This document shows, piece by piece, positions 1 through 57,500 of a DNA stretch of 64,000 nt (within the stretch, counting starts at the first letter, position 1; each line of letters begins with the position of its first letter). Source of the stretch: Eledone cirrhosa (taxonomy: Eukaryota); NCBI GenBank assembly GCA_964016885.1, contig OZ024740.1, positions 281,852,001-281,916,000 on the forward strand. Direction: 5' to 3'. Position numbers and translations under genes: made by a program. The notes below the pieces were generated by a model, which searched no databases, was not told the DNA's origin, and worked only from the letters and a program-made list of their open reading frames with translations.

Positions 1-81
1 GGATCTGAATGTCTACAGCTAGTACAAAAGTATACTAATGTTAATGCCTTTCTTATTGATGGACCATCTTCTTTATGGAAG
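1..81 (+). CDS. CRPPA: ISPD/CRPPA paralog A, exon 5 (truncated by window start)
   Basis: Translates GSECLQLVQKYTNVNAFLIDGPSSLWK then AAG|GTAATT. Homologous to 40443-40544. Confidence 0.92.
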
Positions 82-1122
82 GTAATTTTATTTATTTTCT
101 CTTTTATTGTATGAATCTTGAGTAATGATTGAAAGAATACAATCACAAATACAAGTAGCCAAAATGGGGTTCCTCCAATGGGTTTTTGGAGTAACGTTAC
201 TGGATAATGTATAAATCAAATGTAAGATTAATACGAACTGTTGTAAATAACAGCATGGCTAGAAAATAAAATATTTCTTAATCATGCAAATAATATTACA
301 ATAAACTTGATGTTACTTGATTGATAGATATGTTAGTATCTCCAAGTATTCTATGGCCAAATGTACCTGAAATATCTGGGCACTATTGAATCCTTTATTT
401 TTGTCAGTTGTGAAGAACTTGAGCTGTTTCCACAGTTCTAATGAAAAATGTAGTATTTTCCAACTATTCTCGAGTTACTAAATTTATTAAAAGTAATTTT
501 ATAGAGAAATGTATAGTTATTTCTCATCCTTTAATTTTTCTTTTCTCTCAACTCTGTCATTCCTGGATGACAGAGTTGTTGGAACGTTTACTTTAACTTT
601 AGTTTTCAATCACTGGTTGAACCAAAAGATTGTATGGAGTAAGTGGTTATGGGCATTGATCATTTGCTAGGTCTTGAGAAAGGAGCTATGCTCATGACCT
701 TTACAGGGCCTTCGCAACCATTGATATTGAAATTGTTTTATCAGATATAAGTATATGTAGATTCACTGTAGATACAGCTAATTCATACAATCACAGACAT
801 TAACTAGGATTTTTTTCAACACACTGGCGCATATGTGTGTGTATGTGCATATGCACACATTTATATGTATGAGAGTATAAATATAAACATGCACACACAG
901 CATAGCAAATGGAATGCCAGCCGCTGATTTTTCACCATTCCCTTCCTTACTTTTACATACACAAACACACACACATTGTCTGATGGACAGACGGAAGTCG
1001 CTCAAATTTATATATAGATAAAAATGATGATGATAACAGCAATGATTCTTAGTTTATCTTTCAGAATGTAAATTCAGTTTAATAAATCAACTACTTGTTA
1101 ACTTAGAAGTCTTATTTTTTAG

Positions 1123-1168
1123 GTGACGTATAGAAAAGATTTGTATACAGCAGAAGGAACACTGAAAG
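1123..1168 (+). CDS. CRPPA: ISPD/CRPPA paralog A, exon 6
   Basis: TTTTTTAG acceptor and G|GTACT donor, 46 nt. Translates VTYRKDLYTAEGTLK. Confidence 0.93.
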
Positions 1169-2339
1169 GTACTCTTTTAATTTTTTTTACTATTTTCTCT
1201 TATCCTACTATGTTTATTTGCATGAATACTTGGTCCTGTAACTCCTGAGGGAGTCAAAGAAGTGCCATATTGATATACAGCATTTCTTGGGCACTTTAAA
1301 ACCTGGCAGAGCCCATCTCTTCAGGCCTGATTACAGCAGATTTCTTCCAGAGAAGAATAGAGAGTGAGAAAATGGAAGTGCGAAAGAGATATAGAGGGAA
1401 AATCGACCCGAAAAGATGAAAGGCAAAGTTGACCTCGGCGAGATTTGAACTTAAAGAGCAGAGAGCCGGAACAAATACTGCAAAGCACTCTATCCGACAT
1501 TCTAATAACTCTGTAAATTTGCCACCCTTAATCTGCTTATTTACTTATGTTTAAAAAAAAAACTACAATTAGTCAATTTTTTTTGAAAGCTAAATACTGG
1601 TTTTTGGTACATAATGAATCAAAGTGTGTAGAAGAAACTAACATGAGAAAAGTAACTATTTATTTTATAGTCTCAAATCTAGAAAGAAAGTGAAACACTA
1701 AATTTGGTTTACAAGTTTTTGTGAAGCCCATTCACAGCTATTTATATCCAACTGGCCTACTTATAAGGATTGAAGTGACAACCATTGATTCTACTCTTTT
1801 TTTTTTTCCTATCACTACTAAAACCACATCAAATCATCAATCAACTGAAGTCAACTGCAAACATCAACTTAGAGATGCTCAAACTGAATTTAAATCATAT
1901 TGATCTCACCAGTTTCAGAAGAGCTATAAAGAGTATGGACACTGCCCTACCACAAGACGGGAATTTCCAGGTCATTTTAAAAACTAAGATAATAGTACAT
2001 AAGATTTATTATCTCATTGATGACATGTTATATTGCTGATGGTAAACATTTAAATAACTTGATGGTAACAGAGAGTTTTATCTCTATTCAAAGTGGAACT
2101 ATTTTATGCATATATAAAAAATATATTGTATATTCGGAGAGTCATGCTGCCAATCAAAATTCATGTACTGGTTGTGTTTCTCTTCAGTTTTATTAATTAG
2201 ATAATTAACCCATCAATCTGTTGATGTAGCAACTAATTATTGATTTAATTTTCATGGATAGTTTACTTAATTAATTAGTTGATTACTCAACTGATTGATG
2301 GATTAATTACCTGATTAATCAAACTGAATACAAGTGGCC

Positions 2340-2707
2340 GAAATGGGATTACTCCAAAGAGTCTCTTGATAAAGTGCGTAACTTGGCGATCAGAGAGTCA
2401 CTCCAGGTAGAATTGCTACTTCAAATTGAGAGATCACAGCTCTGATACTAGGGCCATGTGGTTAGAATGTCTCAGGAAAGAATATCGCTGGACAGATTTT
2501 ACGGCGAAACCAACAGGTAGGAGACCCAGGGGTAGACCCTGAGCAAGATGGCTGAATAACATCCATGAGCTTGGATGGTCACGTTTGGGGATCCAGCTGG
2601 ATGAGTTGGAGATGTTTGCTTCTGACAGAACCTGCTGGAAGGCGTGTTTGAGGACTCTGACCCCATGACCCTCTCAGGAATATGTAGGTGAAGAAAAAGA
2701 AGAAGAA
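2340..2707 (+). mobile_element. RTE-type LINE 3' fragment, second family (also 29112-29475 + and 34398-34830 -)
   Basis: Three mutually similar copies encoding decayed ...PTGRRPRGRP.ARWLDNI..., with a (GAA)n-type tail here. Confidence 0.8.
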
Positions 2708-4296
2708 AACTAAAGTGAGATCAACCAGTGTATGTATTTTGATTGACAGCATGACCCTCTCATAATACAACAATATACATTTCAACACATGGTGTCACAT
2801 CAAGAATCTTGATATCATTTACACATTGATTAGTAAAAATTGAAGTGGAATTCTTTGTTAGGATTCTAATTATTTTACATTTTTAAAAGTTATTCTTAAT
2901 TTAATAAAAACATAGTCTTAAGTACACTTACATTCTCCAATTTAAATAGTTTTCTATTCCAAGAAAGATCTCAGTTGCCTTAAGATATTTCTTTTCCTCT
3001 GTGCAAATAAACTGTACATAATATAATTATAATCAACATGTCAACCAGAAATTACTGTTTACACTTCTGAGATGAATAATTTATAATTAATGCTCACTAA
3101 ATTATAAATTATTCATCTCAGAAGTGTAATCAGTACATTCTCTGATTATTACTACCAAACAATTCTCAAAACTATTAATCTTTTGTTTTTATATCTACAT
3201 ACACTGTAAATGTGGTTGGTGTTAGGAAGGGCATCCAACTGTAGAAAACCCGCCAGACAGTCCTATGCGAGCAAGACAACCACTCTTGCCTCAAGTGGGA
3301 AAACCCCCGTCCAAACCCATGCAAGCGTGGAACACGGACGCTAAACCTGATGATGATGATACACTATATTTTTATATTTTAAATAGTTTTGAGAATTGTT
3401 TGGTACTAATAATGAGAGAATGTACTGATTAATGCATTATGTCGATAAAAATACAGAAGATGAAATTAATGGTGTGATTAAAACATAGACATTCTCATAC
3501 TAAGTTGCTTACTGAAATAAACATAAAAATAACTTAACCCATTGAGAATTCTTTTTTTCTTGTGGCCTGGAAAGGGTGTTAGGCCTTCAAATATTTTTTT
3601 TCTCTATGTTCCTCTCATCCACCATTTGTTTCTCATGTTCATCTGTAAGGTTATGGGAACATATAAGTGATCATTTCCTTTACTTCTTCAAAACATCCTT
3701 CTCAATGGTTTTCAGCATTGGCAAAATCATGGCAAACACCTGCTAAAAATATCTGAAGTAACTGATAGAAATAAACAATCTCTAAGTTTATTATTTAAAG
3801 TTATATTTCCAAAGAAATGATATTGATCAATCTTTGTGAAACTTTAGTGGCGCTGCGTGGCCTAGTGGTAAAGGTGTTGGACTTACAATCCTAATCCTGT
3901 GGGTTCAATTCCTAGTCTGAGTTGTGAGATGTATTCTTGAGAAAAGCACTTCATTTCATATTACTCCAGTATACTCAGCTGGAAATAAGTGCCAGCAATA
4001 GCTGAGGGTTTTACCTTGTGATGGACAGGCATCCTGTTCTGAGAGAAGTCTTGTACTTTCAGTTGCTTAATGCCATGGAAACCAGGTTAAGCATAGACCA
4101 GATGAGCCTACAGGCTCGAGACAGACTTCAGTCAAACTTTAATGTAATAATTAGCAAATTAGAATAGATTTTTATATTACTTTTTAAGCAAATTTTTATG
4201 TAATGTTTATTTGTTTAGGTTTTTGGTGATTTGTTATTAAATAATAAGGCAAGATGAGATATTTTCACTAATATTTATTTACTTTCATTTCCACAG

Positions 4297-4385
4297 AAAA
4301 ATTTTTAAAAGTTGGATTAGTCAATATTCCTGATTTGAATTTAGTAGCAGCTTTAAAGGGACACCTAGTAGATCATCACATTGAA
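4297..4385 (+). CDS. CRPPA: ISPD/CRPPA paralog A, exon 7
   Basis: TTTCCACAG acceptor and GTAAGT donor, 89 nt. Translates (E)KFLKVGLVNIPDLNLVAALKGHLVDHHIE. Confidence 0.9.
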
Positions 4386-4403
4386 GTAAGTAATTTTTAT
4401 ATG

Positions 4404-4632
4404 TTAACCTTTTAGCGTTTAAACCTGCCGTATCTGGCCAGAATTCTCTGATCTCTTTCTGTTCAAACCAGTTGTAACTGGCTGCTCATACTGACATTAA
4501 GGTATTGTTCTCCAAATAAATAACATAAAAATATCATAGATTCAATATTATGTGAGATAATTATGTAAGATAAAGCTTTTGCCACAAAAATACAATAGTA
4601 TATATAGAGGAATGTAAATACTAAAGGGTTAA
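4404..4632. mobile_element. piggyBac-like MITE (copies ~25454-25930 with nested SINE, 46796-47010, 54548-54777)
   Basis: Termini TTAA|CC(C/T)TTTAGC...CTAAAGGG|TTAA, with shared internal sequence among the four copies. Confidence 0.8.
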
Positions 4633-4639
4633 CCGAACA

Positions 4640-5230
4640 TTCTTGATCCAGGGTCTTGAAATCACTCAGGGAGGAGGAACTCCTCCCTGGACACCTTCCA
4701 CCGACCTCTGTCCCTTGCCAGTCTTGGCCATGAGGATCCCAGGTGGTTGGTAAATTTGTCTCGCCATCTTGCCCTTGGCTGTCTTTTTGATCTTGTCCAT
4801 TTTCTTGGTGTCCACTCTGACCTCTGCTCGTCCATCTGTTGTCACTGAGTCGCCAGATGTGGCCAGCCTATCTGTGTTTGTTCGTCTTGATGGTTGTTAT
4901 TGTGTCGCTGACTCCAGTTTGGTGTCAGATCCAAGTGTTCTTCTTGTCACAAAGAGTGATACCCAACATAATGCGCTCCATCTTCACTGGGTGACATTGA
5001 GTATGTTCTTCATGGTGTTATTCAGCACCCAGGTCTCACTGCCATACATCATCACTAACAAGATGTGCTTGTTGAAGATTTTCTGCTTTATTCTCATGGT
5101 GGCCTTGGGACTCTTCATGATGTTATATATACCTTTCCGAAGGCCACCCATCCAAGAGGAATTCTTCTCTTGATCTCCAGGAGAAGATCGCCAGCCTTTG
5201 TCACCATCTTCCCTAAGTAAACCGAACATT
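4640..5230 (-). mobile_element. RTE-type LINE 3' fragment
   Basis: Contains KQKIFNKHILLVMMYGSETWVLN and a downstream W.GH..R / GR W-type region. Confidence 0.75.
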
Positions 5231-6573
5231 GTAGAATGTAATATTCTACCATTTATACTTCTTTAGTCTCTTGGATGAGATAATCGTAATTGTGAGAGAA
5301 AATATACTAATTGGGATTTATATTGTGATTTTCATTATATTTGCTAATTATTAGTAACAGTTTGTGAAGACACATGACTTAGTGGTTAGAGGGTTGGGCT
5401 TGCAATCTAGAGGTTGTGAGTTTGATTGTTGGACCAGGTGATGCATTGTGTCCTTGAGCAAGACACTTTATTTCACATTGCTCCAGTTTACTCATTTGTA
5501 GAAATGAGTTGCAACATCATTGGTGCCAAGCTGTATCGGCCTTTGCCTTTTCCTTGGACAACATCAGTGGTGTCACATATATCCTAGCCATTAGAAAAAG
5601 CAAAAATGAATGCTTCACTTTCAAAAGAGGGAAGACTCAAGAAGAAGAAAAAGCAGGAGTTTTAAATTATTGAAATTATGATGGAATGTATTAAATTTTG
5701 ATTTCATTGTTCCTCTTTTCAATTTGATATCTTTTTATAAATGGTTTCATCATTATAAATTAATATTTGAATTCAGATTTCTTTTCCAAACATTGTTATA
5801 TAAATGTAAAGAATTCTCTATTCATGTTAACTAGAAGTTAACATGATGTACAGCTGTTCCACTTCACAAGGCTCCTTCCTCATGTACAACACTTCTCTCT
5901 TTTGGTAGAGGAAAATGGCAGTCTATGGATTAAGGACAACAGAATTCCCAACAGCAATTGTCACGAAATGAAATCTAACCATTAATACATTGTCTGCTCC
6001 GCTGAATTACAGGGGAACGTTGGCATCTATGGCCAAACTAATAAGGCTGGCTCAGAAGAATGTTGCACAACACATGGCATCCCAGATGCATGACTTACCC
6101 CCTCTCAAATGGGAGAAGTATTATGTCTTCTGAATGCTTGCTATTGTAATGGTAAAGATAAGTTGTGATGGGAACTCTGCAGCATTGAGTCTCTTTTTAA
6201 TCATTTAGTGTCGCATGGTATTAGGACAACAAGATGCAGTGTCTTATATACATGGAAACCAAGATTCAGATCAACTTTGATGTGTGTGAAAGTCCTTGAG
6301 AAGAGGGTAGGTACTGTATTGAGCCAAGCACTGCTTTTTGATTGTGAGGCAATCTGAAAGTAAGATGGTTTTACTTGAGGGAAGATTTGGCCATGTTGAT
6401 GTATTTCATATACCTCAATTATATGTATCTGTGTCAGCATCTTTTCAGTTAAGGAGATAACTTGGTGATGTTTGTTGAAGTTACTTTAGAATGTCTTATG
6501 GGTGTATTAGTTTTTAATTTAATTAATTTTATTGGGTGAATTTATAAAAATAAATTTCCATTGTTTTTGACAG

Positions 6574-6858
6574 GTTTGCACATTAGACTCTGCTGACCAG
6601 CTCCCAAAGCAACTAACTAGTGTAGTACTCAGCCAGTCGACTGTGAACTTAGACGAACTTCTTGAAACAACTGAGGAACTTGCACAAGTATGGACAGAAG
6701 AGGCTGGACGATTTATTGCTGGAGGCACAGTGATTTATTTGTTTCATACCTCTGAAGAAGAATGTTTTTCTGATGTTTGGGACCAACTACAGAAATCAGC
6801 AGAAACCCTGGCTGACAATTTCAAAGATAATATTTCTCCAATTTTCATTTTAACAAAG
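6574..6858 (+). CDS. CRPPA: ISPD/CRPPA paralog A, exon 8
   Basis: TTGACAG acceptor and AAG|GTATGA donor, 285 nt open frame VCTLDSADQLPKQLTSVV...NISPIFILTK. Confidence 0.9.
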
Positions 6859-7029
6859 GTATGACTTGTCTTTCCTTTAATAATTATATTTTGAAAGAAA
6901 AAATCTTGAAAATATTTATTTATATGCTTTTTTTTTGTGTTAATTCCCCCTATCTCTGTCTCTCCATTACAAGAGATTGATAAATGAAGAGAATAAATAG
7001 ATGAATGAGGGCCTACCCTATATAAATTC

Positions 7030-7900
7030 AACTGATGGACAAGCCATAAAAGTTGATACCTGCATGATAGACAATGCTTTAAGGATATGAAGGTAGAAAA
7101 GTAGCCGGACGTAGAAAAACCCATCTGGTATGGTAGGTTACAAGAAAGGGTTATAGCACAATTAATTAGTGACAGAATCAAGCTAGATAAGATGCAGTTC
7201 AGCTTTATGCCAGGTAGGGGTACTACTGATGCCCTTGTTCTTGTGAGATAACAGCAGGAGGAGCCTCAGTAATCTGACAGGCACTAAGACAAATGGCTTG
7301 TGAGGACCATATGAGCCAGATCTAGATGTGCAACTAGCAAGGTGAAAGTTGGCAATGAGTTGGGGTCTGCCAGGACTCAATCCTCAGTCTACTTCTGTTT
7401 ATCCTTGTCTTTCAGGCCATAACTTAAAGAGTTTCAGACGGACACTCTATGTAAATCTCTGTATGCTGATAATCTAGTTGTTTTCTAACAAAGTGAAGAG
7501 TAGATTATAATACCTGTGTGTGAACTGCAATGCTACATGTCAGTGAGATATGGACCTTGACTGCTGAAGGCCTGTGAATGCTACATGGCAGTGAGATATG
7601 GACCTTGACTGCTGAAGGCCTGTGAATGCTACATGGCAGTGAGATATGGACCTTGACTGCTGAAGGTCTGTGAATGCTACATGGCAATGAGATATGGACC
7701 TTGACTGCTGAAGGTCTGTGAATGCTAGAAAAATGGAAGCGAGTATGCACTGACAGATGTGTAATGTGTGCGCATGAATGACATAGCAGAATTGAGTTAA
7801 GAGAAAATCTTGGCATAAAAGAACTTGGGTGTATTAAGCAATGGAGATATTAAAGGACCACAAGGATTACTGACATGCTGTACTGGTGAAGATCTAGCTA
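7030..7900 (+). mobile_element. Decayed RTE fragment with internal tandem repeat (a related fragment lies at ~9090-9600 on the minus strand)
   Basis: Residual MQFSFMPGR.TTDA and LYADNLV motifs. Confidence 0.65.
7530..7727 (+). repeat. 48-bp tandem repeat x4 derived from RTE coding sequence
   Basis: Unit ATGCTACATGGCAGTGAGATATGGACCTTGACTGCTGAAGGCCTGTGA (MLHGSEIWTLTAEGL*). Confidence 0.95.
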
Positions 7901-8669
7901 TTAGCATAAAATGTGACCTGATCCATCCTTGTTTCTCTACCACACCTTTGTTATTCTCACCAACATTTTACACCTCCACTCTTAACACCAACATTATTCT
8001 GGTTCAGCCATCTCTCACTCACTCAATCTAGGTTTCCCCATTTTAAAATCCTGGCACACCAGTCATACCCCAACTCATACTATAGTAGGGATCACCTCCT
8101 CTTCCCCTTTAGTAGCTGTTACCATCACAGTACTTCCCATGCTATCCGAGATCATCCCCTCCTACTCACTACCCTGTTTATTCACATGACCCCCACCACA
8201 CTTGTCATATACCCATGATATAATTCTTATCCTCCCCTCCCCTTCCGTCTGATAGAAAGAGCTCTTCAGTTGAGTCAATGACTAAAAACCTCCCTAGTGC
8301 TGGTGCCATGAAAAATTCACCCCATGCATCCTGTATACAGGTTGATGATACAAATGGCATCCCACTGTAGAAATTTTGCCAAACAAAGGGTTGGGAGGAT
8401 TCTTCAGTGGTAGCCAAAATATGATTCCTTGAGCTAGTGCCACAATAAAATGTACTTGGTAGAGCGCAAAAACATATATGAGATCAGTCTTTGATAGGCT
8501 GTCCAACCTATCGGATATTAAATGATGATGATGATGATGATGATATACAATATATATATATGTGAGTGTATAGACATGGCATCATGAATGACCTGTTATT
8601 TTTCTCTAAAAACTTTTTTTTAGATTCCACCCCGCCCGTCCCTTCAATCTTTCTAATTTCTCATTCTTT

Positions 8670-8705
8670 GTTCTAATGAAGGACTAGCGTCCGAAACGTT
8701 AAGAC
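8670..8705 (+). ncRNA. Variant minimal hammerhead-like motif (second decayed copy at 46031-46080, minus)
   Basis: CTAATGA-A-GGAC tagc GTCC-GAAAC-GTTA. The core reads CTAATGA instead of CTGATGA. Confidence 0.5.
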
Positions 8706-9742
8706 CCTCTTCCTGCTATTTCAAGTGTTAACCTAATATATTCCTTCCATATACTGTACCAATTGTGTTGTTAATTCTGTTTACCTTCTACATATATATT
8801 TCTAAATCATCATCATCACTCAACATTTGTTTTCCCCGCCTGTAAGAGTTGGTTGTATGAATTATATTGAGACACCAACACTAGGGAGATTGTCATGTCT
8901 GACACAATTGAAGTGGCTGAGTGGCTGGATGCCTTTCCCATCACCAGTCACCTAACAGAGTGTAATGGGTGTATGTTTCATGGCACCATCACCAAGGAGG
9001 TTGTTGTGTTGTGACTGAATATTTCACAGGTTATACTCTGTGCACCATATGGAATTTCTGGCCACTTCACTGATGTTATTGTTGTTCCGTCATCTTTCCT
9101 ATTTATTAAGATTGCTAAATTTACTTTTAAGCCTTTCAAGTCTGGATTCTCCTTTTTTACCTCTGCTTCTCACACAAATTTAGCTATAATGACTAGATCA
9201 TCAGCATACAGAAGTTCATATGGTGTGCCAATCTTAATTTTTTCAGTTATAGCCTGTTATAAACAGAACTGGACTGATGATTGAGCCCTGGTGGAGCCTC
9301 ACTCGCACTGCAAATTCATCTCTGTTCTCATTGCCAACTCTCACCTTGCTGTTTGCATCTGTATATATGGCTTGCGTGCCCTTCATGAGCCATTTGTCTA
9401 TAGTTAATTTTCTTAGCAAACCACCAGATTATATAGCAGAGGACATTACCAAGGACCTTCTCCAGATCCAAAAATGTCAAGTACAGGAGCTTACCCTGAG
9501 CCTAGTTCTTTTCTTGCAATAATCTCATATGGAAATTTGCTGATTTGCATCTCATCTATCTTGATTCTGCTACTAATTAGTTGTAGTATGATGGAAAACA
9601 GATGTTAAATGATGATGATAATATATGCACACACACACACACACACATATTTATACAGACACATACTTATATGTATATATATATATATATACACATACAT
9701 ATATGTAAAATTGATTTTCATTTTTTCTTCTTCTTTTCACAG

Positions 9743-9835
9743 GATAACAAAAATGTTACAAGGATAGCAAAGATTGTGAAATCCCTTGTTTGGGAAATGT
9801 CTGATACATATGCAGGACAGGTATTCATTGCTTGA
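9743..9835 (+). CDS. CRPPA: ISPD/CRPPA paralog A, exon 9 (stop codon)
   Basis: Long polypyrimidine tract plus CAG. Translates DNKNVTRIAKIVKSLVWEMSDTYAGQVFIA*. Confidence 0.92.
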   Translation, partial: DNKNVTRIAKIVKSLVWEMSDTYAGQVFIA

Positions 9836-9967
9836 ACGTCCACTGTTATTCTTTAAAGACAGAAGCAAATCCGAAAGAAAACAGATATAAAGTAATTAAC
9901 ATTCACAACCGCTTTTGACTCAGTTCCCTTATTTCAGTATCAACAATAATCTGAAATATGAAGATAG

Positions 9968-9973
9968 AATAAA
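9968..9973 (+). promoter_or_regulatory. Candidate polyadenylation signal of paralog A
   Basis: First AATAAA after the stop codon. The hexamer is common in AT-rich DNA, so support is weak. Confidence 0.4.
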
Positions 9974-12140: not shown

Positions 12141-21245
<9,105 letters not shown>

Positions 21246-29812: not shown

Positions 29813-29846
29813 GTATAATGAACTGATAAATTATATTTGAGCATAT

Positions 29847-29939
29847 TCATGCTACAAATACCTGACCCATAAATGTGTCTGACATTTCCCAAAGAAGTGA
29901 TTTAATCAGCTTTACAATTCTTTCAATGTTTTTCATGTC
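29847..29939 (-). CDS. CRPPA: ISPD/CRPPA paralog B, exon 9 (stop codon)
   Basis: TTTACAG acceptor. Translates DMKNIERIVKLIKSLLWEMSDTFMGQVFVA*, resembling the GQLLIA* end of vertebrate CRPPA. The nine exons sum to 1179 nt (392 aa + stop) with consistent phases. Confidence 0.92.
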   Translation of the reverse strand, partial: DMKNIERIVKLIKSLLWEMSDTFMGQVFVA

Positions 29940-34990: not shown

Positions 34991-35076
34991 CTTGATAAGA
35001 TGTTCCTCTAAATGATATTTCAGAGCTGATACCAATTTGGAGTTTGGAATATTGACTAATCCAACGTTAGATTTTT
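34991..35076 (-). CDS. CRPPA: ISPD/CRPPA paralog B, exon 7
   Basis: TTTAG acceptor and GTTAGT donor, 86 nt. Translates (E)KSNVGLVNIPNSKLVSALKYHLEEHLIK, homologous to 4297-4385. Confidence 0.88.
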
Positions 35077-37710: not shown

Positions 37711-37756
37711 CTTTAAGAGATCCTTCTGCAGCATAATGGTCTTTTCGAAAGGTGAC
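37711..37756 (-). CDS. CRPPA: ISPD/CRPPA paralog B, exon 6
   Basis: TTTATAG acceptor and G|GT donor, 46 nt. Translates VTFRKDHYAAEGSLK, completing the KVTxxxD motif. Same length as exon 6 of paralog A. Confidence 0.92.
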
Positions 37757-40442: not shown

Positions 40443-40544
40443 TTTCCAAAGGGGTGGTCCCTCAACAAGGAATGCATTAACATTGGTATACCTTTGGACT
40501 AAATGTAAACATTCAGTGCTATATTCTATATCATCATTCGTACA
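40443..40544 (-). CDS. CRPPA: ISPD/CRPPA paralog B, exon 5
   Basis: TTTCCAG acceptor and GTAAGT donor, 102 nt. Translates CTNDDIEYSTECLHLVQRYTNVNAFLVEGPPLWK. Confidence 0.94.
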
Positions 40545-43927: not shown

Positions 43928-44077
43928 CATTTCGTAGGCTTTCTTTAGTAAATCAAATCGGAATCCTTGAGGCATCTCACTGGCACGATGGAGGTTTTTA
44001 TCAAGAAACTCAGATAGGAAGCTGTTAGAGTTAACAGAGAGTATGTTTGAATTAAGGGGGTTGACTATCCCAGCAGC
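43928..44077 (-). CDS. CRPPA: ISPD/CRPPA paralog B, exon 4
   Basis: CAG acceptor and GTAAAT donor, 150 nt. Translates AAGIVNPLNSNILSVNSNSFLSEFLDKNLHRASEMPQGFRFDLLKKAYEM, with the HRASEMPQ motif. Confidence 0.95.
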
Positions 44078-44473: not shown

Positions 44474-45772
44474 CGTCATCATCATCATCATCGTTTAACG
44501 TCCATGTTCCACGCTTGCATGGGTTTGGACGGGAGTTTTCCCACTTGAGGCAAGAGTGGTTGTCTTGCTCGCATAGGACTGTCTGGCGGGTTTTCTACAG
44601 TTGGATGCCCTTCCTAACACCAACCACATTTACAGTGTGGGGCTGGGAGGTTTTTACCGTGTTGCCTACACGGCCACATTACAGCGTGGACTGTCTGGCG
44701 GGTTTTCTACAGCTGGATGCCCTTCCTAACACCAACCCCATTTACAGTGTGGGACTGGGAGGTTTTTACCGTGTTGCCTACACAGTCACATTACAGCGTG
44801 GACTGTGTGTTTTTTTTGTTGTGACACCTACACGATCTCATTTGTTTCGGCCTGGATTTTGTGGCACCAACATAACTTTACATTGAAAGGGGCGGTGTGG
44901 ATGGGGTGGGGGTGGTGGGACGGGGGTGTATTTTGTTAGAGATGCCTACTGACTGTAGTAGGTTTTACTTTGTATTTAGGTAAGGCGGGTCTTCTCTATT
45001 ACTGAGTACCGCCAAAGGTCTCGGTCCAGTGACATTGTCTTGGAGAGGTGTAAGTGTGTGAGGTCGGAATTTATCAGCTCGTCCCAGGTTTTTCTGGGTC
45101 TGCCTACTCCGTGGCTACCGTCTATCTTTATTGCCCTGCACTTTACTATACAGCTGTCGTCTTTCATGCGCATCACGTGACCATACCAATGTAGCCTTCT
45201 CTCGAGTAAACAACATCTGATCCCTCTTATTTCTAATTTTTTCCTTAGTTCGTTTATGCTTTGCCGTTCGCGTATATTACTATTACACATCCAGCGGAGC
45301 ATGCAAGCTTCGTTCCTCTCTAGTCTGCGTATATCCTCTGCACACAATGCCCAGGTCTCACTGCCATGCAACATTGCTGTTCGTATGCAGGCATCATACA
45401 ACCTGCCTTTCATTTTTAGGGAGAACCCTTTAGCGGCTAATAGTGGTATAAGCTCTCTGAACTTTTTCCATCCCGTTCTGACTCTAGTTACTGTACTTTC
45501 AGAGCACCCTCCCCCACTGCTGATTTTGTCACCCAGGTAACGGAAGCTGTCCACTATTTCTATAGAACCCTCTGCGCAGTTGAAACAGCTAGTATTTTGT
45601 GGGCACTTGCTGCTACTTATTGCACCAGAGCACCGGCCACATGTAAAATCTGTGTTCTTAGTTAGCTTACCTGTGATCCCACTACATCTTTTATGCACCC
45701 ATACTTTGCATTTGGGATATAAAATGGAGTTTCTACCTACGCCTTTCCTACACACTGAGCATGGCCATTTTC
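44474..45772 (-). mobile_element. RTE-clade LINE 3' fragment, same family as 50252-52748
   Basis: 259-aa open frame closely similar to 51579-52350, plus a (GAT)n tail. Candidate TSD CTAGAAT at 44467-44473 and 45773-45779. Confidence 0.93.
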
Positions 45773-47062
45773 CTAGAATATGATATTTCCAAAATATGTT
45801 TGGTTAATCTATTCTGTATAGTAAAAAAGAACAGAAATAAAACAACAAAAGAAGAGGCAATAAATCATACACCAAAGATAGATATTAGGAAGTAAAGGAA
45901 AATAATTCATTGAAGACAAAACTATAGGATAGGGTTGAGAAAAAGGTTAAATCTAGAAAAATAACATTATATATGTATGTGAGAAGCAATGAAGATATAT
46001 ATTAGTTTAATGCTTGATATAATAGGAAAAGAGTCTTAATGTTTTGCATGCTTGTCATTCATTAAAAGATAGAATGAGAAATAAGGGAAGAAATAGAAAG
46101 ATAAAAGAGAGTGAGAAGAGGAAGAAACGGGAAAAAAATATTTTTGAGAAAAACCATATATAAAGCAAGTATACATATATAATATGACTTACTGTAAAGA
46201 TTGGAATTATGAAAGAACACTAACCACAAGTGAAGTTATTCTCTTTTTTTTCCATTATATATATATATATAATGAAAAAAAAAATTTTTTTTTGCTCTAC
46301 ATGGTTGAATACAATAAATGTAATCTGAGTTTTTCGAATATTAATAATAATATTTGATTCGTTTGCAATTATACAAACAAGCCTCTTGTTTTGCATAATT
46401 GCAAAAGAATCGAATATTATTATTAATATTCGAAAAACTCAGATTACATTTATATATATACATATATATATATTAAAGTTAAGCCAAATTTTAATTTGGG
46501 GTGATAAAATCTAGACCAAGTAAAATAAATCAGTTTTACTTATACAGTTCCTCGAGGATGGTTTTATTAATATATCTTATCCTTTCATTGAGATGTTTAC
46601 ATATTAGAGACAGCTAACTTTATAAATATATATATATATATACACACAATGAGCTTTCTCAGATTCCACCTCCCAAATTCATTCACAATGCATTATTCAG
46701 CCCTATAGTAGAAGACACTTGCACAAGATGCTATTATACAAATTCTTAACTACATAGCCATGCCTACACTTTACAGCCAGAACTAAATAAAATATTTAAC
46801 CCTTTAGCATTTACATTACTCTACATTTACTACTGTATTTTCGTGGTAAAGACTTTACCTCACATAACATCGAATGTATGAGATTTTGATATTAATTATT
46901 TTGAGAACAATACCTTGACATCAGTATGATTGGCAAGTTATGGTCAGTTTGAACAGAAAGAGGTGAGAGAATTCTGGCTGGATATGGCCAGTTTAAAGGC
47001 TAAAGGGTTACTAATTGCTTCAGTAGAAAATATTTTTAAATACACAAGTTGTAAATACATAC

Positions 47063-47163
47063 ACCATGTTTCTTCGCAGCAACAGCAACTTGTTGGATGA
47101 TAGATTCATTAATGAGTGGACGAACAGCATCATGGATTAACACAATGTCAGGATTTTTCCAAA
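47063..47163 (-). CDS. CRPPA: ISPD/CRPPA paralog B, exon 3
   Basis: TAATTAG acceptor and GTATGT donor, 101 nt. Translates (V)WKNPDIVLIHDAVRPLINESIIQQVAVAAKKHG, with the HDAVRP motif. Not in the ORF track. Confidence 0.95.
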
Positions 47164-48495: not shown

Positions 48496-50022
48496 ATTTA
48501 GCAGAATCATTAGATTGTCTGACGATGCATTTATGAAAAAATAAAATTTCACAATTTCAGTGACACAGTCTGTAGAACTTTCTTTAACCTTTATGATACC
48601 AACACATCCAAAACTGCCCTAGTTCTATGATGACAAGCCTCATTTTATATTATTCATATTTGAATAAAAGATAAAGTCAAAGAAAAATATCTTTGTTAAG
48701 CTATGTACAAGCAGAAGGAGTCACAAGCAGTTGTATAGAAAAGGAGATGTTAGAAAATATGAATGTGGCCTTATATATGTCATGGTATGGACGTTAGAGG
48801 AATCGCTGTTTCAAGTACAACGATATGATAGTATGGTTAGTTATGTTATTAAACCCCTTCAAATTTTCTATTATTTACCAAATTGATTGAAAAACAGGTG
48901 ATGTGTTTCATTAGAAATATGGTAATGAGTGGGTTAATAATTTGGAATAAGGAGTTTTGTCACTGATAATATTCAAAAACATTATACAATTGTTTAGATA
49001 AATGCACCCAGTACACTTTGTAAGGTGGTTGGTGATAGGGAGGGCATCCAGCTGTAGAAAGCTTCCTTAGTGTTGGCGATCTACACGATAAATACACTTA
49101 GTACATGCTGTAAAGAGGTTGGTAATAGGAAGAGCATCCAGCTGTAGCAAGCTTGCCAAACAAAGGATTGGGAACATTCTCAGTTGTGTCAACGACATGC
49201 CAACCTCTCCTGTGCATTCAGTAGAATGTGAAACTGTACATGAACTTGATACCGATCAATGATCTGTCTGGGAGAACACTAGCCCTGCTTCAGTAGACTT
49301 GGTCTATGTATACCCATCCAGCTCTTGCTAGCAGTGAAAATAGACATTAAAACGATGATGATGATGATGATTTTTGTTGTTCGAATACTTAGACAAAGTG
49401 TTGATAAAGTACATGATAAAATGCACCCAGTACAATCTGTTATGTGGTTAGTATTAGGAAGAATATCTAGCCATAGAAACAATGCCAAAAATTAGAATGT
49501 ACAAGCATGATATGGTTCCAATGACCCATCTAGGAGGGTAGTAACTCCAAATAAGAATTGCCTTGGACTGAAAGAACCTCTTCAAACAATTCAAACATGG
49601 AAAACAGATGTAAAAGGATGAAGGAAGAGAAAATTGTTTATTTACTCTCGAGGCTTGAATAACTTGAATAACTCTTTAATTTTCCAGGTTTTTTATTCAA
49701 TTTTGCTAATCTAACTCCAGCAAAATTTTTCTTTATACATTAAAAAATGACCAAAAAAGTACATTACTAGAAATTCCATACATTATAAAATAAATAGGAT
49801 GTGTTTGGGTTTCAATATGTAAACTAAATGACTGATTCTGGTTTTTAAAAAAATCAATGAAGGTAACCTAAAAAAAATTACCGATTTTCAACCCCCTTCC
49901 CTGCTTATTACAACCTCCCTATTATATGGGTTCCAAGAGTAAATGATGCAGAAGGACAGCAATTTTTATATAGGAAAGGAAATACACAGTTAATTTAATA
50001 GATAAAATAGTTCAGGGCTTAC

Positions 50023-50183
50023 CTAAAGAAAGTTTTTTAATGCCATTAAAGATTGACTGATGTCTGACATTTCCTCCGACTGACACTTCCACTTTATCTA
50101 AATGATACTGGCAAATCAAATTTTCAAGTTTTTCTATATATTCTTTTGCAACAGTAACAATTATTTTCTGCACCCATGAGATT
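50023..50183 (-). CDS. CRPPA: ISPD/CRPPA paralog B, exon 2
   Basis: TTTCTAG acceptor and G|GTAAGC donor, 161 nt. Translates (R)ISWVQKIIVTVAKEYIEKLENLICQYHLDKVEVSVGGNVRHQSIFNGIKKLSL, with the GGxxRHxSIFNG motif. Confidence 0.93.
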
Positions 50184-50251
50184 CTAGAAATAGAAGCACA
50201 AAACATTATACACATACACACACACATTATATATATATATATATATATATA

Positions 50252-52748
50252 TTGAAAGTAAACCTGCTGAAAGCAACGGATGAAATCTGTGGCTGGAGCA
50301 GAGTAACTTGGTGGTGGAACAGCAAGGTAGAAGAGACAATCAAGGCCAAAAAGCAGGCTTGGAAAGTATGGCAGGATGGCGGAAGTAGAGAGCACTATCA
50401 AGTGGCCAGGAGAAAAGCTAGGAGACAAGTGTACCTTGCAAAAAGGGAAGCAGAGGATAGAAAGTTCAAGCATGTTCTACAACGTGAGGACCAAAAACGC
50501 GAGGTGTTCAGGATTGCTAGACAATGTGTCAAGGAAAACTGTGATATTGTCGGGGAGAAGTGTGTCCGTAATGATAACGGTGTACTTGCCCTCACTGATG
50601 CTTATAAGAAGATAGCCTGGAAGTGTCACTACGAGAGACTATTAAATGAAGAGAATAAGTGGGAAAAAGATAGTCTGCCCCAAATCGATCCAATAGAAGG
50701 ACCAGTGGTGCAAGTTAAAGGTAGTATAATAAGTAAGGCAATCAAAGATATGAAGATAGGCAAGGCAGCTGGGCCTTCGGAGATAGTTGCTGAGATGTTG
50801 AAGGCATCTGGAATGGTGGGACATACTATGGTCACCCGTATAGTTAACCAAGTAATACAGAATGGGGTCATACCAAAAGACTGGCGTAGCAGCAGTATCA
50901 TTAACTGCTACAAGGGTAAAGGAGATACTCTAGATAGAGGAAACTATAGAGGTTGACCAGCTCATGAAGGTCACAGAAAGAGTTATAGCGCAACTAATCA
51001 GAGAGCAAATTGATCTAGATGAAATACAGTTTGGGTTTGTGTCAGGTAAAAGTACCACAGACACTCTTTTCCTTGTACGACAACTACAAGAGAAGTACCT
51101 AGCTAAAAGTAAACCCCTATACTTAGCTTTTGTAGACCTGGAAAAAGCCTTTGACAGAGTCCCCCGCTCCATTATCTGGTGGGCTCTTAGAAAACTAGGT
51201 GTAGATGAATGGCTTGTGAGAGCTATACAAGCTATGTATAATGAAACAGTCAGTAAGGTTAGAATTAACAATGAATATTGTGAAGAATTTAGTGTAAAAG
51301 TTGGTGTTCACCAAGGCTCTGTCCTTAGCCTCCTCCTATTTATTATTGCCCTTCAGGCTATAACAGAGGAGTTCAAGACCAGCTGCCCATGGGAACTCCT
51401 ATATGCAGATGATCTAACGCTCATAGCTGAATCAATGGCTGAACTAGAAAAGAAATTCCAAACATGGAAGCATGGCCTAGAATCAAAAGGCCTTAAAGTT
51501 AACTTGTCTAAGACTAAAGTCCTAGTTTGTAGAAAGGAAAATAAGGCATAGGTACCCTCAGGGAAATGGCCTTGCTCAGTGTGTAGGAAAGGAGTAGGCA
51601 GAAATTCAATTTTATGTCCCAAATGCAAAGTATGGGTACATAAAAGATGTAGTGGGATCACAGGTAAACTATCTAAGAACGTAGACTTTATATGTGGCCG
51701 ATGCTCAGGTGCAATAGGTAGCAAGTGTCCACAGGATACTAGCCCCTTCTATTGCCCAGATGGTTCTATAGAAATAGTAGACACTTTCCATTACCTTGGT
51801 GACAAAATCAGCAGTGGGGGAGGGTGTTCTGAAAGTACAGTAGCCAGAGCCAGAACGGGATGGAAAAAGTTCAGAGAGCTTATACCGTTGTTGGCCACAA
51901 AAGGTTTCTCTCTAAAAATGAAAGACAGATTGTATGATGCTTGTATACGAACAGCAATGCTACATGGCAGTGAGACATGGGCATTGCGTGCAGAGGACCT
52001 GCGTAGACTGGAAAGGAACGAAGCATGCATGCTCCATTGGATGTATAATAGTAATATACGTGAATGGCAAAGCATAAATGAACTAAGTGAGAAATTAGGA
52101 ATAAGAGGGATCAGATGCTGTTTACTCGAGAGAAGACTACGTTGGTATGGCCACGTGATGAGCATGAAAGACGACAGCTGTAAAAAAAGTGCAGGGTGAT
52201 CAAAATTGATGGTAGTTACGGTGTAGGTAGACCCAGAAAAACCTGGGACGATCTGATAAATTCCGACCTTACACACTTGCACCTCCCTAAGACAATGTCA
52301 CTGGACCGAGATCTTTGGCGTTACGCAGTAATACAGAAGATCCGCCTTGTATTTGTACGAAGCGAAACCTACAGTCAGTAGGCAACTCTTAACCAAATAT
52401 ACACCCCAATCCACTACCCCTACCCTATCCTCACACTCCCACCAACACCACCCTCTCTCTATAAAGTTGGTACCACAACATCCAGTCCAAATAAATGAGA
52501 TCGGAAAAAACACACAGTCCACGCTGTAATGTGGCCGTGTAGGTAACACGGCAAAAAGTTCTCAGTTCCACACTGTAAATGTGGTTGGTGTTAGGAAGGG
52601 CATCCAGCCGTAGAAAACCTGCCAGATAGTCCTATATGAGCGAGACACGGTCACTTGACCAACCTTGCTTCAAGTGGGACAACTCCCGTCTAACCCATGC
52701 TAGCGTGGAAAATGGACGTTAAACGAAGATGATGATGATGATGATGAT
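50252..52748 (+). mobile_element. RTE-clade LINE, 5'-truncated and disrupted (RT + Cys/His finger + 3' UTR + (GAT)n tail)
   Basis: ORF pieces with KAAGP, NYRG, QFGF, AFVDLEKAFDRV, VHQGSVLS, YADDL, LHGSETW, GRPRKTW. Frameshifts/stops near 50955, 51550 and 52190. Inserted in a TA tract in intron 1 of paralog B. Confidence 0.95.
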
Positions 52749-53641
52749 ATATATATTGTTATGCTTTGGGAGGGTCATGTTGCAAATCACAGAGGCAATA
52801 AACATAAATGAACTCCAACCAAAATTAAATAGAAAACATGAATGAAATAGCAACATCACAACTTACAATTAAGGACAAAATGAAAACACACACACACACA
52901 TAGAACAAACAACCAACCAGTAACATGTAAATAAACAAATAAAAACACACATAGACACCCGGATGTAACACATGCGCAAACTAAGCACACAACACACACA
53001 AAAACAAGATGGCATAGGACAGAACAAAGGAGAAGCACAAAACAAAGAAAAGAATCTCCAGTCACTGAAGAGGTCACAGAATGTGTGACGAAAGAACTTT
53101 GACAATATATGAACAACCGTCCGGTTATGGAACCAACCAACCAACCGGAAATTTATAAATTCTTAAATTTATAAATTTAATTTATAATAAATTGGAGTGA
53201 AAGCAACTGGTGCGTGTGTTTCTTATTGGCAACATGACTCTCCCAAAGTATAACAATATCGGTTTCAACACACGATTTCAGATAAAGAATCTTGCTAAAC
53301 AAATTCAGAAACGAAATATATATAAATATCTATCTATCTAGGGCGGGTAAAATTCCTGAGATCCATGGACGAGTTCTCTCCAGCGGTCTCTGTTCCTCAT
53401 TATCGCTGCCATGTCCTGCGTCTCCAACTGACCAGTGTCTGTCCTTAGGAGGGCATCAACATACGTTAACCTTGGTCTTCCAGTCAATTGACTTTCGTCA
53501 ATACTATCTATCGGTCGCAACGTGAAATAAAGTGCCTTGCCCAAAGACATAACGCACCACCTGGTCCGGGAATCGCACTCACAACCTCACAATATTGAAT
53601 CCAATTCTCTAACCACTCAGCTACATACGTCCACTACATAT

Positions 53642-53689
<48 letters not shown>

Positions 53690-53776
53690 GTAGTGGAGGC
53701 GTGTAGCTGAGTGATCCCAAGGCTCTGATACCATCAACACCATAAACACAGAGCTGGCATATCTAAGAACTGACTA

Positions 53777-53839
53777 ACTGCCTGATGAGGTCATAGCCAT
53801 TCAATGGCTATCATCAAAATATATATAGCAGTAAATAAA
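53777..53839 (+). ncRNA. Degenerate minimal type-I hammerhead ribozyme motif (Penelope-like)
   Basis: ACTGC-CTGATGA-[ATAGCCA ttcaa TGGCTAT stem II]-AAAA (GAAA with G>A)-TATATATA-GCAGT, followed by AATAAA. Stem I (ACTGC/GCAGT) is perfect. Confidence 0.6.
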
Positions 53840-53959
53840 GGATTATGAGTTCATGCAATTGACCTATGTTTCGTCACTATATATTTTATATATATATATA
53901 TATGTTAGGTTATATTGGAGTTTACCAATATATATCCTGGTCAAGATTATAGAAGCTCA

Positions 53960-54430
53960 ATGCTATGAATCCTGTGTGAGGAGCGCGATGCTGCATGGTA
54001 GTGAGACATGGGCAGCAACTGCAGAGGATATGCGACCAATGGAGAGAAATGAGGCAAACATGCTCCGTTAGATGTGCAATGTCAATGTGCGTGAACGACC
54101 GAGCATGGATGTGTTGAGAGAGAGAAACTGTGTCTGAGAAGGATAGATTGTAGTGTGCAGGAGAGGAGACAGTGGTGGTATGGACATGTGATGCGCATGG
54201 AGGATGACCGATGGGTGAAGAAGTGCCAAGAAACGGCAGTTGAAGGAAGACGCAGTAGAGGTAGACCACGAAAAGCATGAGCGGAGGTGGTGAGAGCAGA
54301 CCTCAGATCGCTGAATCTCAAGGTGGAGATGATGAAGAATCGTGACAAGTGGAGAGATGCTGTGCTGAATAGGACCCATCTCACCCTTGCAAGCAGAGAA
54401 AAGCGGATGTAAAATGATGATGATGATGAA
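53960..54430 (+). mobile_element. RTE LINE 3' fragment with (GAT)n tail
   Basis: Contains YESCVRSAMLHGSETW...ERNEANMLR, then W.GHV.R and RGRPRK. Confidence 0.85.
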
Positions 54431-54848
54431 TGCTAATCAGTATCCTTGATCCAGCAGTAACCCAAAAAGGCTCAAGGAGTTTTCAACCTCTGTAGATTAT
54501 GCTATTGACTGTTATGGCACAGACTGCAGAGCTCAAAATTTAATAAATCAACCCTTTAACATTTACATTACTCTATATAAACTATTGTATTTTCACTGTA
54601 AAAGCTTTATCTTACATAATTATCTCACATAATATTGAATCTATGAGATTTTTGATATTATTCATTTTGAGAACAATACCTTAATGTCAGTATGAGTGGC
54701 CAGTTATGGCTGGTTTGAACAGAAAGAGGTGAGAGAATTCTGGCTGGATACGACCGATTTAAATGTTAAAGAGTTAAGAGTGAATAACCAATTTAGACTT
54801 ATAACATAATTTATATACATACACAAACACACCATACATACATATAGA

Positions 54849-55044
54849 CAAGGGTTGGTTGAAAAGTTCTGAGGCTGACTATGAAGGAGTAATTATAATG
54901 CGGTGAAAACTTGCATGCATTAATTTCAACTCTTCTTGTTAATAACTACACTGTTTCTTTCCAGGGACACTGTTGAAAATTAAACTTCATTTGGTTATTC
55001 CATGAGAGTAACTTGGCCAGCCTATGAATTTTTCAGCCAACCTT
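54849..55044. mobile_element. mariner-like MITE
   Basis: Imperfect TIRs AAGGGTTGGTTGAAAAGTTC / GAATTTTTCAGCCAACCTT. Confidence 0.7.
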
Positions 55045-55539
55045 TATATAAGACAAAAGATTAGAAAAAAAAAACAGATGAAAACAATACATTGCAATAA
55101 TAGTATATTTTAACAAGCATTTTGAAAATTGAATTAGAAGATCTCGTCTTAATTGTGACTAAATTAAATATTCTAATAATAACAGGGTGTATATATCTAC
55201 TGAATGGAAAAAGATGGGCACCAGCACCCATGGAGTCAAACCCATACCCCATGTTTGCTGGCCATGTGTGTACTATCTATGCCAATTAATCTAGCCATCT
55301 CCTTCTATTTTTAGGAGCTATGACTTAATAGCGACAGGCAACTTTGTGATATATTCACATAGGAAAATAGAGAGTACCAGCAATGAAAATACCAATGGAA
55401 ACATTGTTTTCTTGATCCAATTTGATGAGCTCTACTCAACTCGGTAAGCAAATGAGGTCTGGGACCTTGTCGATTGTTCCTTCCTCTTTAGTGTTACTGC
55501 AAATTAAATGTAACCAGCCAAGATCACACTATATGCAAA

Positions 55540-56640
55540 TGAGCAATAGTATCTGCATACCTGGTCCTGACTTCCTTATCCACCAATGCTTCCCACTGAA
55601 TCCTGTAGGTCACCCTGGACCTGCCCATTTTGTGGGCTTCTTTAGCTTTAGGTACTCTCAAGTGCAGGTAACTAGATGGTGATCAGTTGACAGCTCAGCA
55701 CAGAATTGTAGAGATCAGAGACAATAACAAAATCAATTATTAATCTCTGTCCCTGATTCCCCTTATACCATGTATATTTATGGATGTCTCTGTGTTGATA
55801 GAAGGTGTTTATAATAGAGAGACCATTGCGAGAACAAAAGTCTATAATTGTTTCTACTTTTGGCACAAGGCCAGCAATTACCCCAGTGTATTACTGGTAC
55901 TTTATTTTATCGACCCCATAAGGATGAAAGGCAAAGTTAACCTCGGCGGGATTTGAACTCGGTCCGTAAAAGGGAACAAAAGTCTAATAATGCCTCTCCA
56001 TTTGTATTTAGATCAGAGGCGCCATTCCTTCCAATCACTTCTTTCCATGTCAGGTGGTCAGTGCCAACATGTGCCTTGAAGTCTCCCATCAGGATATATG
56101 ACTCTGCAGTGACTTCATCTAGGATCTGTATTCGGACCCCTTGCACCACCCAAGAGGCAAATCTCTCTCCTAATGGGATCCAGTCCATAACACATTCTGA
56201 CAGCCGGGGGCTTGTGAATATCCTCGCTCTCGTCTGTGCAGTCATTTCTGGTGCCACACCTGAATAGTGGAGTTTCCATCTTCCATCCAAATCTACAGTA
56301 TAGGAACTTTGTTGAGGAAATGCCGACTATATCTAGTCAGTAGCATCTACCCTCCTCCACTATTTTCTGCTCCTTACCTGTAAATGTTATGATGTTCCAG
56401 GTTCTAATTTTCAAGGTTTGCTCCTTTCTGGACCCTCTTTGGGGTCTCAGGATACGCAATCTTTGTGCGTCTATTCCACGCCTCCCAGGACAGGTCGCAA
56501 ACCCATCGCCAGTTTTTGCGGCATTAAATGGAGACTGCAATATATTTTTCGAACAGGCCCTTCTACCTAAGGCCTGAACGCGTACCTTGTTAACCCGCGC
56601 GAAGGACGATGCGGTATGATTCTTTTTTTCTCTCACCACA
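55540..56640 (-). mobile_element. RTE-type LINE 5' part (APE endonuclease), interrupted by a SINE
   Basis: Motifs LKIRTWNI, ILMGDFKAHVG, NGEALLDFC and INTFYQH..HKYTW...IDFVIV. SINE at ~55845-55972. A related 5' segment lies at ~58380-58520. Confidence 0.8.
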
Positions 56641-57348
56641 TTGCAGTTGCGGTGGTCTTATTCACGCCAGTACCAATCTGGTACTTTGTCAAACCCACAA
56701 AGACTAGGCTTTTTTAGAGGCGGCCTTTACTTGTCTTGTCATTGGGTTCTGAGAGTTTTCTTGGGAGCTACAGGTTTCACCTATTGCTTCATTACCCTAG
56801 TAGTTTACCGCTATTCATACACAAGTTAATCATCAGTCACGGAGCGTAGACACCAGAAAACAGCATACAATATAAGTTGTTTAAATCCATATATTTACTA
56901 TTTCGAATATATCTCTGATATAGTTCCATACCTTCGATTCACGAACGTCAATCTACCTGTCCAGTAATCGCCTGTTGTGCTTAATTAACATCATTCATTA
57001 TCGAAATTGAAAGGAAATTTAGTTTGCGAAAGCACTTTATACTTCAGGATCGCCGATAAGAACCAGACCGTCATGTATTTAAAAGTTTGTTTCAGACCGC
57101 ACAGTACGCAATATACTTGCTATAAGAATATTGCTGCACGTTTAAACTTCTTGTTCCTATAGGAATGTTGTTTTAATTTGTATAAAATTATTATTCCTAC
57201 TAGAAGCAGTATTATTTTTTATATTATTCATTTTCAAAACAAAAAAGAGAAGTTAGTTTGCGAAAGTGCAACCGGTACGTTATACTTCATGATCACTCTA
57301 CGCTAGCAGGCTATTGGAAATAATTTATTATAAATCATTTTGACTTAC

Positions 57349-57500
57349 CTGTTAAACTCCTGAAGGGTATAGACAATTAACGGTTTATCTGAGATTAACC
57401 AAAACTGTTTGGGTGTGGAAACACCTGTACGAACCCCACACCCTCCAGCCGGTAGAACAACACACACATCGAAATCAACAGGAGCATTGTATTCAGACAT
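57349..57500 (-). CDS. CRPPA: ISPD/CRPPA paralog B, exon 1 (start codon)
   Basis: Translates [50 protein letters not shown], containing the IspD signature LPAGGxGxRxGxxxPKQF. Ends AG|GTAAGT (phase 2). Confidence 0.95.

Follow-up and report, generated by a model that had tools for sequence, protein, structure and literature searches.

Why octopods should keep two genes for an enzyme that humans make from one is the question raised by a 64,000-nucleotide stretch of the Eledone cirrhosa genome (GCA_964016885.1, contig OZ024740.1, forward-strand positions 281,852,001 to 281,916,000; hereafter the window), which is part of contig C1 of a 3.0-Gb genome. Human CRPPA, also called ISPD, is single-copy; its product, required for glycosylation in muscle, is a D-ribitol-5-phosphate cytidylyltransferase and makes cytidine diphosphate (CDP)-ribitol. 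The window carries a tail-to-tail pair of CRPPA genes, here copies A and B, with nine exons each, 20 kb between the two stop codons and proteins closest to those of Octopus. Judged by alignment, neither copy has the canonical set of active-site residues, and the changes in the two are complementary, firmly so at H115, D116 and T198 in copy A and at T149 in copy B. The best explanation that we can offer, to which we would give an even chance, is that A and B form a heterodimer in which the B core and the A arm make up a single canonical site for CDP-ribitol.

The sequence-only reading of the window had described two intact tail-to-tail paralogs with shared intron positions and phases and in-frame indels, and this description holds. 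Copy A encodes 393 amino acids (aa) without a stop, and copy B is a 392-aa open frame, also free of stops, with GT-AG introns. Intron phases are 2,1,0,0,0,1,0,0 in both, and exon lengths (A/B) are equal save in exon 5 (105/102), exon 7 (89/86) and exon 8 (285/288), three differences that are all multiples of three. Identity between the A and B proteins is 248/391 overall; for single exons the values counted earlier by hand were confirmed (exon 6, 11/15; exon 8, 51/95; exon 9, 20/30). Exons 6-9 of copy A lie in the window together with the last 81 of the 105 nucleotides (nt) of exon 5; exons 1-4, which the earlier reading had proposed to seek upstream, were recovered in the 10-kb stretch directly preceding the window (L001, one of 16 flanking 10-kb stretches taken). 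Copy A intron 1 is GC-AG (donor AG followed by gcaagt, ~9.5 kb upstream of the window), and copy B has GT there; cutting at the GC donor keeps the copy A frame, and the O. vulgaris protein shows the same junction sequence. The features are listed below in window coordinates, 0 being the base that precedes window base 1.

-9698 to -9547, plus strand: copy A exon 1, with the P-loop and a GC donor
-3217 to -3057, plus strand: copy A exon 2
-2719 to -2619, plus strand: copy A exon 3, in which N115-E116 replaces the signature H-D
-1075 to -926, plus strand: copy A exon 4, with a canonical beta-arm (R144, T149, S162, R165)
1 to 81, plus strand: 3' part of copy A exon 5, which begins 24 bases before the window; in the spliced contig described below; the codon at 4-6 is S198, a conserved Thr elsewhere (human T238)
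1123 to 1168, plus strand: copy A exon 6, 46 nt, equal in length to what separates exons 5 and 7 in the spliced contig
4297 to 4385, plus strand: copy A exon 7, in the spliced contig
6574 to 6858, plus strand: copy A exon 8 (C-terminal domain), in the spliced contig
9743 to 9835, plus strand: copy A exon 9 with the stop codon
9836 to 29846, no strand: 20-kb spacer between the two stop codons, containing a microsatellite
29847 to 29939, minus strand: copy B exon 9 with the stop codon
30906 to 31193, minus strand: copy B exon 8 (C-terminal domain, fast-evolving)
34991 to 35076, minus strand: copy B exon 7
37711 to 37756, minus strand: copy B exon 6
40443 to 40544, minus strand: copy B exon 5, with T198 kept and G197S in Eledone cirrhosa
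43928 to 44077, minus strand: copy B exon 4, with a degenerate beta-arm: N144, N149 (44047-44045), F162 and K165 (43999-43997)
47063 to 47163, minus strand: copy B exon 3, with canonical H115-D116 (codons 47134-47129) and the IspD signature
50023 to 50183, minus strand: copy B exon 2
57349 to 57500, minus strand: copy B exon 1, with the ATG and the P-loop

Comparison of the two gene regions by blastn matched the exons and detected no collinear intron homology, in line with the earlier remark that no homology is visible between the introns; the scattered, non-collinear intron matches look like shared mobile repeats. Genome searches with B exon 8 and with B exon 4 each returned exactly these two loci. 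Genome searches with the ISPD_C and IspD families gave no match, the known pair included, and are therefore uninformative on further copies, so that the evidence for two copies consists of the two single-exon searches.

Residues are numbered by the 393-aa proteins. From residue 110 these numbers equal those of the 4CVH chain, and human numbers are 40 higher, an offset confirmed by hand on some 15 residues that PMC12336902 names in its list of patients. Conservation was taken from a closer set of 115 non-cephalopod homologues, mostly fishes (143 less 17 isoform or cluster duplicates and 11 cephalopod proteins), and from a wide set that adds 134 new sequences from 150 listed 50%-cluster representatives, fragments and distant members included, for a union of 249. 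As test columns we used the 31 positions of the catalytic domain whose conservation reaches 95% or more across the 249 homologues and which the single CRPPA of cuttlefish type also keeps. Copy A has fixed changes in three of the 31, all in the core and all found in 4/4 A proteins: H115N (His in 236/242 homologues), D116E (Asp in 242/242) and T198S (Thr in 234/243). Copy B keeps these three residues and has fixed a change in one column, T149N/D (Thr in 239/240), which lies in the dimer beta-arm and is found in 5/5 B proteins. Four more columns are changed in part of the B proteins, namely L146V and R165K (Arg in 240/241) in the arm and A185S and G197S (Gly in 233/243) in the core; R165K and G197S are peculiar to Eledone cirrhosa, residue 165 being Arg in the other four B proteins. 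None of the 31 columns is changed in both copies. T149 and R165 of the arm are kept in 4/4 A proteins, and the catalytic Arg and Lys of the Gly-rich P-loop (R24, K31) and the second Lys (K223), equivalent to E. coli R20, K27 and K213, are present in every A and B sequence extending across these positions. The IspD signature (PMC5020098) is absent from 4/4 A proteins, which have N-E for H-D, and present in 5/5 B proteins and in 103/115 of the outgroup.

With the closer set at 98% conservation, copy A changes 3/43 core and 0/9 arm columns and copy B changes 0/43 core and 3/9 arm columns (R144N, T149 and S162F/C; Fisher p=0.004, the limits of the arm having been set once the data were known). The cuttlefish-type copy keeps the canonical residue at all seven positions (H, D, R, T, S, R, T). 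Constraint within the two clades is reciprocal: for copy A, window and Argonauta agree at 21/22 residues of the arm (146-167) and 9/12 of the HD segment, and for copy B at 10/22 and 10/12; among 11 segments, HD and TE are the only two in which window B is closer than window A to the cuttlefish-type copy. Residue 159, in an arm strand, is Pro in the three Octopus B proteins and Leu in 112/115 homologues, which may be taken as a further sign of decay of the B arm.

The changed positions can be placed on the better-known IspD enzymes. We take D116, T149 and R165 to be the counterparts of E. coli D106, T140 and R157; an alignment with Arabidopsis IspD has Asp, Thr and Arg at these places. IspD has been described as a homodimer in which the beta-arm (E. 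coli 137-159) links the subunits and holds the binding site of methylerythritol phosphate (MEP), with Asp106 strictly conserved and Arg157 binding MEP (PMC11770629), and the beta-meander forms most of the dimer interface (PMC5099578).

Family and fold were examined on the O. vulgaris orthologs, whose identity to the window proteins is 94% for A and 80% for B. Pfam IspD (PF01128, cut-off 27) scored 125 bits for A and 116 for B in this species and 120 and 113 in Argonauta; Pfam ISPD_C gave no score for the orthologs of either copy. Predicted structures of O. vulgaris A and B (mean predicted local distance difference test, pLDDT, 87 and 85) both match human ISPD (4CVH) best in Foldseek, over both domains, with a template modelling (TM) score of 0.76 and 407 and 411 columns. 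By sequence, too, human CRPPA is the best match, with E-values of 5.5e-68 (A) and 2.9e-63 (B), and the equivalents of its P-loop, R126, K263 and SEMPQ are kept in the octopod copies. Human CRPPA is all-canonical, whereas octopod A alters the equivalents of H155, D156 and T238 and octopod B those of R184, T189 and S202, with R205 in addition in Eledone B. A literature search for the human variant D156N and for related variant names gave no match. At the positions changed in A, H155R has been listed together with T238A in one patient, and at those changed in B, R184G, S202L and R205C/H have been listed in other patients (PMC12336902).

A profile search (best 120 of 1024 hits, from 7999 scored candidates) placed five cephalopod clusters first, namely Octopus A and B, Argonauta hians A and B and one of cuttlefish type, after which scores drop from 570 to 350 bits (chiton). 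Both copies are named in O. vulgaris, O. sinensis and O. bimaculoides (by cluster look-ups) and in Argonauta hians. The annotated pairs are CAI9721434 (A) and CAI9721431-3 (B) in O. vulgaris, and GAB1606714 (A) and GAB1606715 (B) in Argonauta hians. Orthologs of A are 89-95% and those of B 63-80% identical to the window copies and share their substitutions, R165K and G197S in B excepted. Adjacent accession numbers, together with contigs of equal length, suggest that A and B adjoin each other in other octopods too. The cuttlefish-type CRPPA, represented by Sepia pharaonis CAE1257462 and by Logan sequences with 93-97% identity to this protein, is the closest outgroup and has the same 393 aa; unlike the octopods, it forms one cluster, with canonical residues. 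Among the best 120 of 1024 hits, a list of uncertain coverage for squid, vampire squid, cirrate octopods and Nautilus, neither the cuttlefish type nor any other named mollusc showed a second copy. Longer proteins searched with B exon 8 gave no match although B orthologs exist, which marks that search as insensitive. The pair was found only in incirrate octopods; on these data the earlier attribution to cephalopods was too wide. That both paralogs should be documented already and widespread across molluscs had been named as a point that would refute the earlier reading. It applies in part: both are annotated automatically by NCBI, under one and the same name, but among the hits listed they are not widespread in molluscs.

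Phylogenetic trees recovered an A clade (100/98), a B clade (100/100) and, among mollusc CRPPAs, a coleoid clade of A, B and the cuttlefish-type copy (100/100). The best tree (17 rows, LG+G4) joins A and B (84/69), and the approximately unbiased (AU) test rejects neither A with the cuttlefish-type copy (p-AU 0.27) nor B with it (p-AU 0.086). A quick tree of 38 rows gave no decision on the order of A, B and the cuttlefish-type copy, and polarised characters stood one against two. These comparisons lean towards a duplication later than the octopus-decapod split. The old inverted duplication proposed earlier is supported, as a local event common to incirrate octopods.

Copy B is by far the faster-evolving of the two. 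Identity to the cuttlefish-type copy is 82% for A and 63% for B (88% and 58% in the C-terminal domain), and identity between window and Argonauta is 89% for A and 63% for B over the whole protein. The ratio of nonsynonymous to synonymous divergence (dN/dS) between A and B is 0.147 by NG86 (bootstrap 0.08-0.22, 196/200 draws usable) and 0.218 by LWL85, at a dS of 1.1-1.6 that is near saturation. These values lie far from the ratio near 1 that would have spoken against selection, and purifying selection on both copies is supported by the sequence comparison. Four sequencing runs (one study; kind not on record) contain B exon 8. Three of them cover the copy A region in all 30 bins, as DNA would. 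In the fourth, X4, a 696-letter contig passes from copy A exon 5 over 46 letters, the size of exon 6, into exons 7 and 8 and skips the introns, which shows that copy A is transcribed and spliced; X4 was treated as RNA solely on the strength of this contig. Of 27 words taken from B exon 8, a fraction of 0.96 is present in the same run, whose tissue is not on record, and this fits co-expression of A and B in one sample. The X4 contig, of depth 7, shows one difference, a C instead of T at window position 6735 (copy A exon 8), which is probably an allele of another individual. An assembly artefact or a pair of allelic haplotigs was ruled out by the 63% identity, the opposite strands and the presence of both copies in four other species. 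Copy A, complete and spliced, is not a pseudogene, and copy B is unlikely to be one, with open frames in five species (one model partial) and a dN/dS below 1.

How two such copies could work together may be pictured from the IspD-type dimer, in which the arm of one subunit reportedly completes the sugar-phosphate pocket of its partner. In copy A the changed residues are those of the catalytic core (H115N, D116E, T198S) and the beta-arm is kept; in copy B the core residues are kept and the arm is changed (T149N/D, and in Eledone also R165K). If the arm acts in trans, an A:A site would join an altered core to a good arm and a B:B site a good core to an altered arm, so that both homodimers would be impaired. 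An A:B dimer would possess one canonical site, made of the B core and the A arm, and a second site, made of the A core and the B arm, that gathers all the changes and would be idle or retuned. Only A:B would then yield a canonical site, so that both genes would be needed and both kept. A more far-reaching reading is that the shared active site of CRPPA has been divided between the two genes and that the A:B heterodimer is the sole maker of CDP-ribitol for glycosylation of dystroglycan, the second site perhaps taking another substrate; we place it just short of an even chance. If this heterodimer-only reading is true, the octopod pair would be a case of natural intragenic complementation at human CRPPA muscular dystrophy positions. 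Bacterial and plant IspD and TarI share the catalytic fold, the homodimer and the beta-arm; they differ in that they lack the C-terminal domain, and their described structures are homodimeric. We know of no paralog heterodimer in the IspD/TarI/CRPPA family, with no search aimed at it. Transitions from a homomer to an obligate heteromer after duplication are known elsewhere, for example in the fungal V-ATPase ring of Vma3 and Vma11. The octopod case would resemble that ring in that complementary losses make both paralogs necessary, and would differ in that the losses are proposed in the two halves of a shared active site and not at ring interfaces.

Several observations weigh against this heterodimer. 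R144 and S162 vary in the wide set, where they are kept in 76/124 and 85/126 sequences; we abandoned them as essential residues, and T149 is therefore the sole firm loss in all B proteins. In the combined set the split between arm and core is one of 3 versus 1 columns, too few for a test. Window B also carries G197S in its core, at a position that is Gly in 233/243 homologues, and since B evolves fast throughout, its drifting arm may be part of a general relaxation. Copy A keeps all the residues checked for binding of cytidine triphosphate (CTP) and catalysis (R24, K31, R91, R119, K223), and its P-loop is identical to that of Argonauta A at 22/22 residues; a fully idle site would be expected to drift. 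The conservative nature of the changes in A (D to E, T to S), identical in 4/4 proteins, would fit a retuned working site just as well. The human patient substitutions differ from the octopus ones at the same positions. As to the action of the arm in trans, T140 and R157 are reported to reach the partner's site (Richard et al. 2001/2004). The excerpts of PMC5099578, PMC6297244, PMC5114681, PMC3562076, PMC10918830, PMC13576159 and PMC5961758 contain no explicit statement of a trans role for arm residues.

It may be instead that A has acquired a new function, a retuned pocket (N115, E116, N196, S198) activating another sugar- or polyol-phosphate, while a B homodimer or a mixed dimer makes CDP-ribitol. 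The earlier reading had suggested a second CDP-polyol synthase of this kind or, alternatively, tissue-specific glycosylation, and both suggestions are speculative. The four pocket changes are identical in 4/4 A sequences beside intact CTP-binding residues, mammalian ISPD also acts weakly on other pentose and pentitol phosphates (PMC4873967), and the genome holds at least nine LicD-domain frames as possible users of other CDP donors. We regard it as unlikely: the change of T149 and the arm drift in B, next to a canonical arm in A, are left unexplained, residue 116 is Asp in every one of the 242 homologues, and human CRPPA lacks CDP-glycerol synthase activity, which belongs to PCYT2 (PMC8587909).

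Both copies might also be ordinary homodimeric CDP-ribitol synthases in which the changes are tolerated or compensated, A being the workhorse and B a relaxed form restricted to a tissue or stage, with expression split between them. The slow evolution of A (82% identity to the cuttlefish-type copy against 63% for B), the conservative D to E and T to S changes, the occurrence of Ser198 in 4/243 homologues and purifying selection on both frames agree with this. It is nonetheless improbable in our view, given the near-invariance of D116 (242/242) and T149 (239/240), the failure of A to match the IspD signature, the presence of both sequences in a single run and the coincidence that the reciprocal pattern of constraint would then be. 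Least credible is A as a pseudo-enzyme that binds CTP and serves as regulator or scaffold for a B active by itself, or that is kept mainly for a function of its C-terminal domain. The lost signature Asp, the kept P-loop and the slow C-terminal domain of A (88% to the cuttlefish-type copy, 58% for B) speak for this, but independent full activity of a B without T149, and here also without R165, is doubtful and the strong arm conservation in A points to a site-completing role.

We found no paper on the octopod CRPPA pair in a search that did not reach most subscription papers, and the excerpts of PMC8478517, a survey of the pathway enzymes in animals, mention no ISPD duplication, its supplement apart. 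The genes themselves are already annotated automatically. Paralog heteromers arising by complementary loss are a known kind. If the A:B heterodimer is real, it would provide a clean two-gene case in which complementary losses within the shared active site have made a homodimeric enzyme obligately heterodimeric; with the single canonical cuttlefish copy as control, the locking-in of complexity by neutral loss would be testable with three purified proteins. It would also follow that human compound heterozygotes with one core-side (H155, D156, T238) and one arm-side (S202, R205) allele complement in part and same-side pairs do not, which bears on the reading of genotype and phenotype in CRPPA dystroglycanopathy. 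Should one of the rival explanations hold, an otherwise invariant Asp or Thr would be replaceable in a working enzyme, or a new CDP-polyol synthase would have been found.

The LicD-domain matches in this genome, at least nine of them in long open frames (279-517 aa), include four clustered on contig C4 and two on contig C3. The two frames that were examined look like single-exon genes for type II membrane proteins of fukutin/LicD-like character. The loci are as follows, with no strand assigned.

C4:62.67-62.79 Mb: LicD-domain locus
C3:51-63 kb: LicD-domain locus
C2:282.05 Mb: LicD-domain locus
C6:76.38 Mb: LicD-domain locus
C10:9.05 Mb: LicD-domain locus

Almost half of the spacer between the convergent CRPPA genes is occupied by an 8.8-kb TA/ATGT microsatellite (window 12157-20941). 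ATTGG/CCAAT boxes occur shortly 5' of both start codons, at 57575-57545 on the minus strand for B and about 80 bases before the ATG for A, and are a possible shared promoter element. Intron 3 of copy B contains a 275-aa open frame (window 44979-45803, minus strand) with a weak PHD-finger match and, after it, what looks like the terminal part of a reverse transcriptase of the long interspersed nuclear element (LINE) type. A 499-bp portion of this element matches sequence in intron 1 of copy A at 95% identity, which suggests a recently active retroelement.

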